Made by a program: the position numbers and the translations under genes. Shown here piece after piece: positions 35,818 to 50,919 of a stretch of DNA of 64,000 bases. Position 1 is the first letter of the stretch, and each line of letters starts with the position of its first letter. Source of the stretch: Bacteroidota bacterium (GTDB lineage Bacteria > Bacteroidota > Bacteroidia > AKYH767-A > 2013-40CM-41-45); contig JANOVV010000112.1 in the NCBI GenBank assembly GCA_031417555.1, positions 45,559 to 109,558 on the forward strand. The letters run 5' to 3'. The notes under the pieces were generated by a model, which ran no database searches, was not told the DNA's origin, and was given only the letters and a program-made list of their open reading frames with translations.

Positions 35818-38166
35818 TTGATGTGGTCTAAAAAAAATTACAGCCGTTTATTTTATTCTTTTCCGATTCAGCTTGTTGTTGTGCTGATGAAGAAAAATCA
35901 TTTGTTGTTATTGTATTGGGTAATTTTATTTGGATGGATAACTAATACCACATCTAAAACATTTGGAATCCCCTATTTATTTCTTGATCCGGAATACATG
36001 GGCTCGGTCGGCTTCACATCTTTTTTTATTATGGGATTTGCAGCCGGTAGTTTTATAATGGTGTATAATATTTCCAGTTATATTATAAATGGTTTTCGTT
36101 TCCCTTTTATAGCAACGCTTTCCAGGCCATTTTTAAAATATTCGGTAAATAATTTTATTGTTCCATTGTTATTTATAATAACTTATCTGGGTAATATTAT
36201 TTTCTTTCAGGTTAATAATGAATACCAGACTACCTGGAGCATTATTTCACAGGTTTTGGGTTTTATTGTCGGACTTGCACTTATTGTAATGACGACATTA
36301 ACATATTTCTTCAGAACGAATAAGGATATTATTTTAATGTTTGGAATCGAGTCTTCAGATTCAGATCCTAATGCTCCCTATGCAGAACATCTTCTTTCTG
36401 ATCATGAAAAGGAAAAGAAAAGGAGAATTATAAGAAAAAGAAACTACGTTGAAAAAAGCTGGCGCGTCGATACGTATTTAAGTAATCCATACAAAGTTAA
36501 ATTAGTAAGAGCTACTGCCCACTATACTCGCGAAATGGTGGATTCGGTTTTCAGACAAAATCACTTAAATGCTGCTATTATAGAAATAATCGTATTTGGA
36601 TTATTTATTTTGATGGGATTGTTTAAAGATTATTCTTTCTTTAAGATTCCTGCCGGAGCAAGTGTTATTCTTATCTTTTCTTTATTTATAATGCTAAGTA
36701 GTGCTTTCCGCTTTTGGCTCAAAGCATGGTCGACATCTGTTTTGATTTTAGTAATTCTCGTCTTCAATTTTATTTCCCAGTACGGGTTTTTCTACTCCGA
36801 TAATAAAGCTTACGGAATGGAATACAATAACGGTAAATCAGATTATAGTATTCTCCATTTTAATGAAATCAGTGATTCTATAAAAGTGCAGACGGATTTA
36901 AATTCTACTATCCAAATCCTTGAACGTTGGAAAGAAAAATTTATAAGGCATAATACAAAGCCTAAAATGATTTTCATTAATTGTTCAGGTGGTGGTTTAC
37001 GGGCTTCTATCTGGGCTTACAGGCTTATGCAAATGGCAGATAGTCTTACGAATATGGAATTTTCTAAATCTACTCAATTGATTTCCGGCGCATCGGGAGG
37101 AATGATAGGTGCGGCTTATTACAGAGAACTTTATTTACAAGAGCGTTTAGGATTATTAAAAAGTAAAAACAGTAAAAAAAATATTTTTAATATTGGAAAA
37201 GATCTTCTGAATCCCGTTGCCTTCAGTGTTACGGTAAGTGATATGTTTTTTAATTTACAGAAATTCAAAGAAGGGAATACACATTTTGCAAAAGACAGAG
37301 CCTATGCTTTTGAACAGCAATTGAACGAGAATACCGGTTATGTGCTGAGCAAGCCTTTATCAGCTTATAAGGAGGCGGAAGCCAGCGGACTTATTCCGAT
37401 GATGATCTTTGCTCCTACTATTGTTAATGATGGCCGAAGACTTTTAATTTCTTCACAGGATATTAGTTATATGACTAAGCATACTGTTGATAGTATCTTT
37501 CGTTTTGATCTTACCATTGATGAAATTGAATTTCGTAGACTTTTTGGTAAACAGAATGCAGATAATATCCGATATACTAGTGTTCTTAGAATGAATGCAA
37601 CGTTTCCATATATATTACCTGCTGTAAGTCTTCCGAGTGAACCATTAATTCATGTGATGGATGCCGGTATTCGCGATAATACCGGACTAAAAACATCACT
37701 TAGATTTTTATATATTTTCAAAGAATGGATTGAAGAAAATACCAGTGGTGTAATATTCGTCGATATACGTGATTCTCATAAAGAAAGACCTATTGAAAAT
37801 AAACCGCGCATGACATTGTTGGAAAATATTATTACTCCTCTTGGAAATATTTATGGAAACCTTTTAACGATACAAGATTATAATCAGGATGAAGCCTATG
37901 AATATGCAAAAGGATGGTTCAATGGTAAATTTGATTTCATTAAATTTGAATTGCCAACGAAAGAGCAAGATATATCACTCAGCTGGCATTTGACTACAAG
38001 AGAAAAGGAAAGTGTTTATAATTCAGTATTTCTACATGAAAACAATGTTAGCTTTCAAAAGCTTTTTAAAGTGATGAATGATTTAGAACCGTATGCTTCT
38101 AATTTTATTGCAGAAAAAAATGACAGTATCCTTGCTGGTGGAACTCGAATTGCATTACATAAGTAA
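35818..38166 (+). CDS. Membrane-anchored patatin-like phospholipase
   Basis: An N-terminal multi-TM region of about 330 aa. Patatin motifs follow: oxyanion GGGLRAS, nucleophile GASGG, and Asp motif DAGIRDN. 782 aa. Confidence 0.75.
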   Translation: MMWSKKNYSRLFYSFPIQLVVVLMKKNHLLLLYWVILFGWITNTTSKTFGIPYLFLDPEYMGSVGFTSFFIMGFAAGSFIMVYNISSYIINGFRFPFIATLSRPFLKYSVNNFIVPLLFIITYLGNIIFFQVNNEYQTTWSIISQVLGFIVGLALIVMTTLTYFFRTNKDIILMFGIESSDSDPNAPYAEHLLSDHEKEKKRRIIRKRNYVEKSWRVDTYLSNPYKVKLVRATAHYTREMVDSVFRQNHLNAAIIEIIVFGLFILMGLFKDYSFFKIPAGASVILIFSLFIMLSSAFRFWLKAWSTSVLILVILVFNFISQYGFFYSDNKAYGMEYNNGKSDYSILHFNEISDSIKVQTDLNSTIQILERWKEKFIRHNTKPKMIFINCSGGGLRASIWAYRLMQMADSLTNMEFSKSTQLISGASGGMIGAAYYRELYLQERLGLLKSKNSKKNIFNIGKDLLNPVAFSVTVSDMFFNLQKFKEGNTHFAKDRAYAFEQQLNENTGYVLSKPLSAYKEAEASGLIPMMIFAPTIVNDGRRLLISSQDISYMTKHTVDSIFRFDLTIDEIEFRRLFGKQNADNIRYTSVLRMNATFPYILPAVSLPSEPLIHVMDAGIRDNTGLKTSLRFLYIFKEWIEENTSGVIFVDIRDSHKERPIENKPRMTLLENIITPLGNIYGNLLTIQDYNQDEAYEYAKGWFNGKFDFIKFELPTKEQDISLSWHLTTREKESVYNSVFLHENNVSFQKLFKVMNDLEPYASNFIAEKNDSILAGGTRIALHK

Positions 38167-38294
38167 ATTAAAATTTATTATAGAAAAGGAAATAATATAT
38201 TATATTTTTTTTTGATGACGGAAGTTTTTAAACTTAATTATTACCTATAAGTTTCGCCCGATTTATTTTATTTTGTTCGGATGATAGCAAATTC

Positions 38295-38621
38295 TCACAA
38301 GTTTCCTCCTGAATGACGATTTTGAGTTTTGTTATAAAACTCACAGGATTCTCTGAATTTATTTTCATTTAATCTCCTTATTAAATTGATTGCAGGAAGA
38401 TATTATTGTCATAAATTAGTTTATCTATGAAACGTTCGAAACAGCCAAGGAAGCTATTGAATGAGAAAAAACAATTAAAGACATGAGTCATGAAAAAAAA
38501 ATTGAATTAATAAAATCAAAAAATAAAAATCTAGCCTTTTATTGTATTTGGTAATTCAGAAAGAATCCTGTGAGTTTTTTTATATAATTTAATCCATCGT
38601 CATTCAGTAGGAAACCTGTGA
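38295..38621. repeat. Composite inverted-repeat element of about 330 bp (MITE-like or structured-RNA candidate)
   Basis: Left arms 38295-38320 and 38336-38359 are mirrored by 38551-38578 and 38592-38621 (about 22 of 26 and 23 of 25 matches). The arms contain a reiterated motif resembling TCACARGWTTCTCTGAAT. Confidence 0.5.
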
Positions 38622-38735
38622 CATAAAATGTAATTTTTTTTTAGGAATAAAATTGAAAAATTTAATAAAATATTTTTGCAAAAAAATATACAAACTATAA
38701 CTACATAAGTAATGTTTAATTTATATCTTAATTTC

Positions 38736-38783
38736 AATTTGTAATGACAAGACCATATGAATTTCAATGTCTCATTACAAATT
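38736..38783 (-). terminator. Stop-codon-proximal hairpin (possible terminator or RNA-stability element; no clean U-tract)
   Basis: aatttgtaatgaca...tgtctcattacaaatt: 12-14 bp stem overlapping the E1 stop codon. Confidence 0.3.
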
Positions 38784-47967: not shown

Positions 47968-50919
47968 TCAATTATTGCCTACCCGCTGATCGAGGATTGA
48001 TTTATAAATGATTTCCTGGATATTTGTCCTAACGTTCATTTTAATTAATTTATCGTTAGACACATCGGGATTAATTCTGTTAGATAGAAAAATATATATT
48101 AAACCATATTTAGGATCAGCCCATGCACATGTTCCGGTAAAACCCTGATGACCAAAAGTCATTGGCGATGCTGATGGACTGCAAGGGCTGACTTTTGAAG
48201 GATCAATTTCCGGTTTATCGAATAAAAGTCCGCGACGATTCTGTGGAAATTGTTTTTGAGTAAAAGCTTGAATGGTTGAGGGCTTTAACAATCTTTGTCC
48301 GCCATAAATTCCATCGTTAAGAAGCATTTGCATTATTACAGCCAAATTGTTGGCATCACTAAATACGCCTGCATTTCCGGAAACTCCTCCTAACATTGCA
48401 GCTGCGGGATCATGTACAAAACCTCTCAACAATTGTTTCCTGAAGACAGTATCATTTTCTGTTGGGACAATTTCATTCAATTTAAAATTATTACGTGGAT
48501 TAAATGTTAAGCGGGAAAGTTTTAATGGTTTATAAAAATTTTCATAAACATATTTATCTAAAGTTTCTTTTGTAATATTTTCAATAACCTCTTTCATTAA
48601 AATCGGTCCAAAATCACTGTAAACGTATTTTCCTTTTTCACCCAATGGAGAAGTGTAAATATGTTTTCGAATAGTATCTGCATAACTTTTCAATAAATAA
48701 ATGCTGTCAGCGACGTGTAATGTAAATTTATCATCAGGTGAATTTTTGTACAAAGTATTTGAAAGACCATTAGGAACCAAGGTTTCTTTATAGAAAGGAA
48801 TCCATGATTGAAGTCCGGCCTGATGAGCCAGAATTTCTTTTATGGTAAGATTACTTTTATTTGTGCCTTTTGATTTTGGTAAATATTTGGAGAGTGTATA
48901 ATATAAATTGATTTTATTTTTCTCGTATAATTTCATTGAAGCAAGCGCTGTTGCTGCAATTTTAGTAACTGAGGCAATATCATATAAATCTGAATTGCTA
49001 ACAGAATCGGTTGAATCATAACTTTGATAACCGAATGATTTTTGAAAAACTACTTTACCATTTCTTGCGACTAATATCTGACAACCGGGCATTGCTCCAT
49101 TTTTAATTGCTGAGTTAACAACGCTGTCAATTTTATTGAGTTGAATGGACGACATGCCGGCAGCCTCGGGAATAGTATATTGGAGTCGAATAGTTTTTCC
49201 GGATTTGACACTTGTATTTCTTGGAAAATCGGGCGTAGATGAAACAGGAATTTTCCCTGATGCACTTAATCCTCCCATTATAACTTGTGCTGCTATTGAT
49301 TGGGTAATTGCAAAGTCTTCATAAGCAAGAAGGATTGCTTTCGCAGATTTTAAATTTTTGAAACGGGAAAGAGTATATGCATTTCCAAAATCTACAAAAA
49401 CGGTTTTATATTTTGAGAGCACATTATCGATAAACTTTGCGGCTGATGGTGGAATACCATAACCGGTTTGAGCTTTCATGGTAGTTCCATGCAAACTTAA
49501 AATTACATAATCATAATTCGAAAGAAAGTTAAACAAAGCTTCATAGACAGATACCGGGGCATCTTTATCTTCCGAAAAGACATCCAGATTTCCATACATT
49601 TTTAACTGCTGTTGAAATGAATTATTGATCAAATCTCCTATTACAACGCTTGCAATTCGTATAGAATCCTTTGATCGAAATGGTAAAAGAGAATCTTTGT
49701 TTACCAATAATGCAATTGATTCTTCATAGAGCTTTCTTTGTAACAGTAATCCATCTGGATTATTTAAATCATTATACAAATTAGTTGTATCAATAATTTG
49801 CGAACGATTAAGTCCGCACCAGAATTTTACCATTAATAATTTTTTAACACGAGAATCAATTTCCTCCTGGGTAATTTCGCAATTCTCGACAGCATAATGT
49901 ATTTCCAGAATTCCTTTAGGTACATCTTCCGGATAAAGTAATACATCATTTCCCGCCAATAAAGCCATCTTGTCGACAATTCCGGGTTTGTGGCTTTGCG
50001 TTACCCCTTTCATATTCAACGCATCCGTAAATATTAAGCCTTTAAATCCCATTCTTTCCTTTAGCAAACCGGTTACAATGGAAGTTGACAATGTTGACGG
50101 CATGTTTTGATTGGTATCAAGTGATGGCACATTCAGATGAGCCACCATTATTCCTGCAAGACCGGATGAAATTAATTTTCGGAAAGGATAAAGTTCAACG
50201 GAATCGATTTCCAGAGTATCCTGAAAAATTGTTGGTAATGAAAAGTGAGAATCGGTATCTGCATTTCCATGACCCGGAAAATGTTTGCCTGTTGCCAGGA
50301 TGTGATTATCCTGAAGGGCATTCATATAATAAAGCGATTTTATTGTTACGTTTTCTCTTTCATCACCAAATGACCGGCTGCCAATTACAGGATTGGCAGG
50401 GTTATTATTTATATCCGCATCAGGAGCAAAATTAACATGTATGCCAAGTCGTTTGCAATTTTTTGCAATTTCATTTCCCATTTTGTAAACGACACTGTCA
50501 TTTTGTATTGCAGAAAGAGTCATCTGCCTCGGGAATCGAATCGTACTATCCAGGCGCATAGCAAGACCCCACTCGGCATCCATACCAATTAGCAGAGGAA
50601 CTTTTGATTTGCTTTGATAATTGTTTGTCAGTATGGCTTCTCTGAATGGACCGCCTTGAAAAAAAATCAATCCTCCTATTCCATATTTTTCAATTAGTCC
50701 CGAAATTTCTTTGATGTGATCGGTATCTTTATTACTCCAGGCCGCAACCATCATCAGCTGTGCAATTCTTTCTTCGCGATTGAGTTTTTTAATAATAGAA
50801 TCAGCCCAATATTCTGCTTCTTTTGAAAAGAAAGGTGGATTATCCGCAGCCCTTACTTTCTGAAAGCAAATTACAATAAATAGAACTACCAGACAGGCAG
50901 ACAAAAACCTATTATTCAT
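47968..50919 (-). CDS. GH3 (NagZ-like beta-N-acetylhexosaminidase) domain fused to a beta-lactamase-family serine hydrolase domain
   Basis: GH3 motif KHFPGHGNADTDSH; the C-terminal half carries the S-x-x-K motif (ASVTKIAA); signal peptide; 983 aa. Confidence 0.8.
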   Translation of the reverse strand: MNNRFLSACLVVLFIVICFQKVRAADNPPFFSKEAEYWADSIIKKLNREERIAQLMMVAAWSNKDTDHIKEISGLIEKYGIGGLIFFQGGPFREAILTNNYQSKSKVPLLIGMDAEWGLAMRLDSTIRFPRQMTLSAIQNDSVVYKMGNEIAKNCKRLGIHVNFAPDADINNNPANPVIGSRSFGDERENVTIKSLYYMNALQDNHILATGKHFPGHGNADTDSHFSLPTIFQDTLEIDSVELYPFRKLISSGLAGIMVAHLNVPSLDTNQNMPSTLSTSIVTGLLKERMGFKGLIFTDALNMKGVTQSHKPGIVDKMALLAGNDVLLYPEDVPKGILEIHYAVENCEITQEEIDSRVKKLLMVKFWCGLNRSQIIDTTNLYNDLNNPDGLLLQRKLYEESIALLVNKDSLLPFRSKDSIRIASVVIGDLINNSFQQQLKMYGNLDVFSEDKDAPVSVYEALFNFLSNYDYVILSLHGTTMKAQTGYGIPPSAAKFIDNVLSKYKTVFVDFGNAYTLSRFKNLKSAKAILLAYEDFAITQSIAAQVIMGGLSASGKIPVSSTPDFPRNTSVKSGKTIRLQYTIPEAAGMSSIQLNKIDSVVNSAIKNGAMPGCQILVARNGKVVFQKSFGYQSYDSTDSVSNSDLYDIASVTKIAATALASMKLYEKNKINLYYTLSKYLPKSKGTNKSNLTIKEILAHQAGLQSWIPFYKETLVPNGLSNTLYKNSPDDKFTLHVADSIYLLKSYADTIRKHIYTSPLGEKGKYVYSDFGPILMKEVIENITKETLDKYVYENFYKPLKLSRLTFNPRNNFKLNEIVPTENDTVFRKQLLRGFVHDPAAAMLGGVSGNAGVFSDANNLAVIMQMLLNDGIYGGQRLLKPSTIQAFTQKQFPQNRRGLLFDKPEIDPSKVSPCSPSASPMTFGHQGFTGTCAWADPKYGLIYIFLSNRINPDVSNDKLIKMNVRTNIQEIIYKSILDQRVGNN

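Follow-up and report, generated by a model that had tools for sequence, protein, structure and literature searches.

Bacteria have many stand-alone UPF0213/Slx1-like GIY-YIG proteins, which are, to our knowledge, essentially uncharacterised. Minimal GIY-YIG domains of the UPF0213 type have been grouped with Slx1, in a structure-specific branch separate from the homing endonucleases (Dunin-Horkawicz et al. 2006, PMC1564403). Described systems which come closest to the locus presented here are MITEs, whose parents carry transposases of the DDE, HUH, serine or tyrosine type, REP/REPIN repeats with their RAYT enzymes, free-standing GIY-YIG homing endonuclease genes (I-TevI / Seg) and transposons with IR-DR ends. 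In the full-text literature, as far as our incomplete coverage reached, no paper was found that links GIY-YIG genes to terminal inverted repeats, REP/REPIN or MITEs in bacteria, and a box-bracketed GIY-YIG cassette does not seem to have been described before.

In this work, we are presenting the analysis of an inverted-repeat element found between two convergent genes in a 64-kb stretch of Bacteroidota DNA (64,000 nucleotides, hereafter the window). The element derives from a cassette of which a sister strain keeps an intact copy at this site; the window copy is internally deleted and inactivated, and an unexplained palindrome of 330 bp becomes in this way an identified pseudogene relic. We hold it very probable that it represents a decayed, non-autonomous copy of a small GIY-YIG nuclease cassette, of about 485 bp when intact. 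The local finding is ordinary in kind, while the architecture of the family appears to be a new variation on selfish-element themes.

Layout of the inverted-repeat element

The spacer that holds the element is 615 bp long, has 20-28% G+C and separates a plus-strand gene of 782 aa (35818-38166) from the minus-strand E1 gene (40761-38782). The original prediction had placed the element between convergent genes for a patatin-like protein and an E1. The convergent arrangement and the E1, a fused alpha/beta 2-oxoacid dehydrogenase E1, are solid, whereas the name 'patatin-like' comes from a sub-threshold Pfam match alone (Patatin, E 4e-4).

Repeat search gave two nested inverted pairs: an outer one of 26 nt with 92% complementarity (38295-38320 / 38596-38621) and an inner one of 31 nt with 81% (38322-38352 / 38562-38592). 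By blastn each whole arm forms an inverted repeat of about 69 nt (~81%). The element (38295-38621, 327 bp) contains four copies of a box of about 20 nt, CACAGGWTTCCTYCTGAAT. Its 20-nt form TCACARGDTTCYNYCTGAAT is present at 38295, 38554(-) and 38602(-) with at most one mismatch each, and the copy at 38341, the fourth, carries a deletion of 2 nt. The rest of the window contains a single match to the box, with three mismatches, at 49655. Shuffled sequences gave an expectation of 0.22 matches, and four were reached in none of 100 shuffles. Both mirrored arm pairs and the four box copies that had been predicted are therefore upheld by the repeat search and the shuffles. The predicted order is correct too: the left side has its two boxes in direct orientation and the right side has both inverted, the layout found at transposon ends. 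Two consensus forms of the box can be distinguished, outer CACAGGTTTCCTCCTGAATGAC and inner CTCACAGGATTCCTTCTGAATT, one of each per composite repeat of about 70 nt (Table 1).

Table 1 Coordinates of the features of the element in the window
Feature	Position	Strand	Remarks
Outer left box/arm L1, TCACAAGTTTCCTCCTGAATGACGAT	38295..38320	+	Inverted partner of 38596-38621
Left inter-box spacer	38321..38335	+	Varies among independent elements (arm alignment)
Inner left box L2, AAAACTCACAGGATTCTCTGAATT	38336..38359	+	Internal spacer 2 nt shorter than in the other boxes
5' leader remnant of nuclease gene	38360..38394	+	Identical to L051:1166-1200; ends at deletion junction
GIY-YIG nuclease pseudogene	38395..38554	+	Codons 43-94 and TAA stop at 38552-38554
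19-aa basic mini-ORF	38427..38486	+	Artefact: +1 frame of the pseudogene
Inner right box R2, inverted	38551..38578	-	Nuclease stop codon inside
Right inter-box spacer	38579..38595		Arm alignment
Outer right box/arm R1, ATCGTCATTCAGTAGGAAACCTGTGA	38596..38621	-	Inverted partner of L1

Either strand of the element is predicted to fold at about -95 kcal/mol, with z = -7.2 and -8.6 against shuffled controls. The flanks of three independent insertions have no consistent target-site duplication and a clean empty site was never seen, in agreement with the original prediction, which had found no duplication either. No recombinase or transposase gene was seen among the genes adjoining the element. Tn7/CAST-like ends, attP arm sites, a mini CRISPR array and dif/Xer sites were weighed by layout only and rejected, as the terminal bases, the 46-48 nt period and the half-site symmetry do not fit.

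The rest of the spacer has features of its own. Directly after the E1 stop (38725-38783) there are two 26-nt direct repeats, 77% identical, which hold two perfectly complementary 12-nt stretches (AATTTGTAATGA / TCATTACAAATT) on either side of a 24-nt loop; this may be a native 3' hairpin of the E1 gene, and no T-run follows it. The sole exact Bacteroidetes-type -7 motif in the spacer (TAnnTTTG: TATTTTTG) is located at 38671-38678 (+) and points antisense into the 3' end of E1; it is present in L015 and deleted in L001, two of the related contigs described below.

An inactivated GIY-YIG nuclease gene and its state in related strains

The core of the element is the 3' half of a UPF0213/Slx1-like GIY-YIG nuclease gene, read from the plus strand. 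Relatives of the locus were recovered via the E1 protein; the close ones are uncultured Bacteroidota, and synteny is kept in all loci recovered. One of them, a sister MAG contig (L051; GCA_031363205.1, JANLTY010000415.1), carries at the same locus an intact element of 485 bp, in the order outer and inner boxes, leader, ORF of 285 nt (P0124, 94 aa), inner and outer boxes, with the stop codon of P0124 within the inner right box. Its left side is the end of the patatin-like gene and its right flank matches window 38622-38750. Residues 53-94 of P0124 correspond to window 38426-38551 (93% identity, E 1.7e-21, tblastn). The window peptide, after repair of one frameshift and one stop, has 74% identity to the C-terminal half of a homologue from another context, the L042 protein (E 1e-21, BLASTP), and the remnant alone gives a match to Pfam GIY-YIG that is under the cut-off (E 0.005). 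A tblastn search detected no second GIY-YIG copy in the 64-kb window.

Compared with L051, 156 nt (1201-1356) are absent from the window, with the junction at 38394|38395; this deletion covers 30 nt of the leader and codons 1-42, including those for Y17, G19, R27 and H31. An extra C at 38425 shifts the frame, and TGA at 38462-38464 stands in place of the family-invariant Arg65. At position 38462 the window has T, L001 has C, and L015, L019 and L051 have A (TGA vs CGA/AGA, both Arg). Having lost the leader and codons 1-42, with the catalytic Tyr, Arg and His, and having acquired a frameshift and a nonsense codon, the window copy is unable to make an active nuclease.

Identity of the intact protein was established with the L042 protein, which matches Pfam GIY-YIG (PF01541) over residues 3-77 (E 3.2e-13, 50 bits, cut-off 22.6) and has no other Pfam match; P0124 carries a precomputed PF01541 match. 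A search with the L042 protein returned 145 homologues of about 94-100 aa, mostly named 'GIY-YIG nuclease family protein', from Bacteroidota and mostly on very short contigs, and the best of them was P0124 on L051. The family profile matches the UPF0213 structures 1zg2 (BH0048, E 1e-9) and 1ywl (EF2693, E 3e-6). Residues Y17, G19, R27, H31, E54 and E66 are invariant in 13 homologues, and we take them to be the counterparts of the catalytic Tyr, Arg, His and Glu of I-TevI. Pfam gave no NUMOD or other DNA-binding module in the 94-aa nuclease, and its GIY-YIG domain has no obvious module for reading a 20-nt box. P0124 has weak matches to PHROG homing endonuclease families; PADLOC returned nothing.

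Two small ORFs that had been called in the element can be removed. The A-rich core with its 19-aa basic mini-ORF was part of the original prediction; the ORF exists, but it is not meaningful, the core being the truncated GIY-YIG gene. The homologous reading frame starts at 38426, and the mini-ORF is an artefact because its start ATG (38427) is ATA in L001 and it is out of frame with the pseudogene. An antisense ORF of 44 aa (38234-38368, minus strand) crosses both left boxes and was annotated by gene callers in public assemblies (P0121, 11 contigs; P0122); it is probably spurious, as it has no homologues outside the locus and overlaps the repeat arms. We also considered and rejected minus-strand small genes, ORF-A (38491..38381) and ORF-B (38368..38234), or a type I toxin-antitoxin system. 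These ORFs had looked promising through seemingly synonymous changes and an in-frame fusion in L001; a protein search with them gave matches confined to gene calls at the same locus, and the 'synonymous' three-state site is the first position of the plus-strand Arg65 codon (CGA/AGA/TGA).

The state of the locus varies among the relatives. In the window and 11 contigs with E1 about 100% identical, the spacer of 615 bp holds the element with the 156-nt deletion. Larger deletions are found at 99% E1 identity (L001, spacer 480 bp) and at 97% (L015-L017 and L019, about 580 bp), and a larger internal deletion is common to L001, L015 and L019. At 96% (L002/L003) a spacer of 47 bp keeps only a 16-nt stump, 'TCTCAGGTTTCCTCCT'; the retained 'caaattcTCTCAGGTTTCCTCCT' consists of left flank and part of the left outer box. 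This state looks like a secondary deletion, not an unoccupied target. Essentially no spacer is left at 89% (L018) and 84% (L004). Every element-bearing form of the window locus has the gene or a gene remnant, and no clean arms-only allele was found. The outer box L1 is found also in L051, L042, L050 and L052, and the inner left box L2 is invariant in the window, L005, L001 and L015. Between the window and L015 the arms are 89-94% identical and the flanks 84-95%, and an apparent contrast of arms and flanks in L001 is due to a different flank allele; as conservation of the arms does not clearly exceed that of the flanks in this lineage, the relic shows no sign of selection.

The presence of dispersed copies had been expected for a MITE and did not materialise. 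None is present in the 64-kb window; the two-box pattern, run on one genome per GTDB species, yielded only the syntenic copy in L019 and one chance match inside a CDS; and all 11 contigs with the locus-specific 44-aa ORF represent the same locus, collinear with the window. The element is accordingly single-copy and lineage-restricted in these data, and the possibility of a dispersed MITE was rejected on these scans together with those of viral sequences, which gave nothing real. The MITE-like reading holds in one respect: a longer, gene-carrying element with matching ends gave rise to this non-autonomous form by internal deletion.

Several observations concern exchange around the element. L051 is a mosaic, with the left flank of the L001-type allele and the right flank of the window-type allele, which suggests that strains have recombined in or close to the element. 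L009, L010 and L014 lose all similarity to the window to the left of 38714, and L028 does so to the right of 38719, all four carrying E1 identical to P0002 (~100% identical to the window E1); this suggests an insertion or replacement between element and E1 in some strains. The 140 nt of foreign sequence in L010 have no match among the other sequences fetched. L011, with near-identical E1, diverges at 38774, 8 nt past the E1 stop, and represents a third spacer allele. The independent Logan assemblies L012/L013 and L027 end at window 38576-38594, in the interval that separates the two right boxes. This stretch has no exactly repeated 31-mer, and low coverage or population heterogeneity could be the cause of the breaks.

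Box-flanked nuclease genes in other contexts

Nuclease genes flanked by the box are located in at least four unrelated contexts: the window locus, L042/L048, L050 and L052-L061. The homologues from the three contexts unrelated to the window locus have 55-76% protein identity. L042 and L048 emerged from a metagenome scan with the two-box pattern, which otherwise gave mostly chance matches; on these contigs of 34% G+C the box element lies downstream of a membrane-protein gene, in the order two left boxes, about 110 nt, an ORF of 85 aa and the inner right box. In L050 the element adjoins an exonuclease-like gene and an ABC ATPase gene and has arms of 78 nt (87% complementary). The same contig carries, 185 nt from the full element, an arms-only mini-palindrome (L050:197-338) in the order outer, inner, inner-inverted, outer-inverted, with the centre CCTGAATTCAGG; placing the gene between the inner boxes of this mini-palindrome gives the gene-bearing form. 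An unrelated second family of inverted repeats (…GTGGGTAATCGTGAGATCTAAAGAT…) is placed around the mini-palindrome at 41-66, 138-165 and 361-403, an arrangement that looks like nested palindromic elements.

Contigs L052-L061 belong to a widespread Flavobacteriales organism, where the boxes were detected without the box as query. The nuclease is 55% identical and has the outer box on both sides of the gene, upstream as a hairpin AACAGGTTTCCTCCTGAATGA-N13-TCATTCAGGAGGAAACTTGTT and again downstream; L057 has a 78-nt indel with an extra inverted box. This Flavobacteriales homologue (P0159) has one stable context in all 10 places listed, from 21 contigs, and looks for that reason domesticated or vertically inherited, not actively mobile. 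Orientation of the boxes relative to the gene differs, from direct-direct...inverted-inverted in the window to hairpin-gene-single box in L052, and on this account the boxes may not be 'ends' in the transposon sense. When the arms of all elements are aligned, two conserved boxes stand out and the spacer between them differs from element to element, which points to sequence-specific recognition, not a generic RNA stem.

Palindromes of similar build were noted further away. A plasmid of Spirosoma oryzicola carries a more distant member of the nuclease family, which has long hairpins of another kind (termini TGTCATCC...GGATGACA) on its flanks, and a second plasmid of this strain has one of these hairpins without the gene, between convergent genes. 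Metagenome Ga0247727 (53% G+C) has five intergenic, gene-less palindromic copies ending TCACAAGRTTCC(T)TCTGAATGACA. As these loci were chosen by the search pattern itself, their likeness to the box is partly by construction and homology is only suggestive. The Ga0247727 repeat, of about 200 nt, is dispersed over five different gene contexts (L032, L034, L037, L041 and L047) and consists of a hairpin GTCATTGCGAGCGCAGCGAAGCAATC...GATTGCTTCGCTGCGCTCGCAATGAC and a segment of about 25 nt that differs between copies; no nuclease gene was found near it in the fetched stretches. Scans of viral sequences with the box pattern gave nothing, or a chance match inside a phage ORF, viral contigs searched with the nuclease alignment contained no relatives, and plasmid and phage DNA searched with the element gave no match.

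Origin of the element and comparison with known systems

The nuclease cassette is probably mobile, or was so in the past, with the boxes as candidate sites of the nuclease; this reading is drawn from the four contexts, the pattern of presence and absence and the series of decayed forms, and the presence of the cassette does vary between close relatives. Against active mobility, no clean empty site was seen, a target-site duplication could not be defined, the box arrangement is variable and P0159 is stably placed. In the mechanism we propose, the cassette would be, or would once have been, a selfish mobile unit, and the boxes would serve as sequence-specific sites or as hairpin- or cruciform-forming substrates for the nuclease. 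Breaks at the boxes could then allow the cassette to be copied into sites that are new or empty, and internal deletion might leave gene-less palindromes of MITE/REPIN type. The relic in this genome is most likely inert DNA and at most a large hairpin at the 3' ends of the convergent genes.

A different history would apply if the box palindrome were an independent REP/REPIN-like repeat, host or selfish, typically seated between convergent genes, and the GIY-YIG gene a secondary invader of its centre. The arms would then have been at the site before the gene and would not be 'ends' of a cassette, and the gene would be a homing-endonuclease gene. The precise gene-less palindrome of L050, from which the gene-bearing form differs by the gene between the inner boxes, speaks for this history, and so do the Spirosoma oryzicola hairpin, flanking a GIY-YIG gene on one plasmid and gene-less on another, the five Ga0247727 palindromes with a similar terminal box in different intergenic contexts, and the weak PHROG matches of P0124. 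However, only forms with the gene or its remnant occur at the window locus, and no clean arms-only allele; gene-less forms are explained equally well by internal deletion, demonstrated at this very locus, and the Ga0247727 loci were selected by pattern, which partly builds in their likeness to the box. We consider an invaded repeat possible, but rather unlikely.

The original prediction had also allowed for a large structured RNA, and the imperfect stem of about 70 bp in convergent 3' UTRs could be imagined, now or always, as a functional RNA or as a bidirectional terminator or mRNA stabiliser. Its predicted folds are very stable on both strands, it is positioned between convergent genes, the arms are kept in all deletion derivatives and two substitutions in L001 are G-U compatible on the plus strand. 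Such a role is nevertheless improbable. Rfam had nothing relevant to offer, either at the gathering threshold or at E <= 10 (noise only), no intrinsic-terminator-like site was found, and close relatives manage without the element, with spacers of 47 nt or 1 nt or with overlapping genes. What is conserved is the box sequence, rather than pairing with free sequence, while the spacers vary and box orientation relative to the gene differs in relatives; the stem is fully accounted for as terminal repeats of the cassette. An inverton, in which the inverted repeats would be recombinase sites flipping the core, is suggested by inverted repeats around a core of about 230 bp in a Bacteroidota genome and by several metagenome contigs that break in or near the element. 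This we regard as very improbable, because at contig level all spanning contigs are collinear with the window and a flipped core was never seen, the core has no Bacteroidetes-type promoter, and it is a nuclease pseudogene.

With the cassette as the preferred reading, a broader proposal can be made tentatively, and we consider it possible while leaning somewhat against it. Bacteroidota, and possibly other phyla, may harbour an undescribed class of selfish elements, whose sole gene is a minimal Slx1-like GIY-YIG nuclease and whose bounds are composite inverted repeats of a box of about 20 nt, itself almost unchanged even where the nuclease is down to 55% identity. The nuclease would act on the boxes or hairpins, and the elements would spawn gene-less palindromes, as an analogue of REP/RAYT or as a new transposon superfamily. 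A conserved 20-nt box physically linked to UPF0213/Slx1-like genes is a concrete candidate substrate for these proteins, and it raises the testable hypothesis of a palindromic repeat system driven by a nuclease. If this is true, a nuclease class would be added to the enzymes known to propagate bacterial repeats, and part of the palindromic intergenic repeats of Bacteroidota would be explained.

Among known systems, the window element shares with MITEs its short length, the lack of coding function and terminal inverted repeats with sub-terminal repeated boxes. Like them it has ends identical to those of a longer element (L051, whose autonomy is putative) but no longer the coding capacity of that element, and an arms-only version exists in L050. 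It differs from MITEs in being single-copy in the data of this lineage, in the lack of a detectable target-site duplication, and in its parent gene, which encodes a GIY-YIG nuclease and not a DDE, HUH, serine or tyrosine transposase. With REP/REPIN-RAYT systems the family has in common a small single gene between inverted copies of a short repeat, gene-less palindromic doublets in intergenic DNA, also between convergent genes (L050, Spirosoma plasmids), and a gene that is often single-copy and stably placed (P0159). RAYTs, in contrast, are HUH Y1 transposases of the IS200/IS605 type, whereas the cassette gene is a minimal GIY-YIG nuclease, and the box-nuclease family, in the data so far, displays no repeats in high copy number per genome. 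Free-standing GIY-YIG homing endonuclease genes (I-TevI / Seg) have the same catalytic domain, vary in presence at one site among close relatives and decay fast once fixed. The cassette protein, however, has only 94 aa, without NUMOD or another DNA-binding domain, and homing endonuclease genes are not known to have long composite inverted repeats on either side; the cassette nuclease belongs to the Slx1-like/UPF0213 branch and not to the HEase/UvrC branch of Dunin-Horkawicz et al. 2006 (PMC1564403). IR-DR ends (Tc1/Sleeping Beauty, IS21, Tn7, Mu) likewise have two direct boxes of about 20 nt per end and mutually inverted ends, but here the resemblance is one of layout only, and no related transposase accompanies the boxes described in this work.
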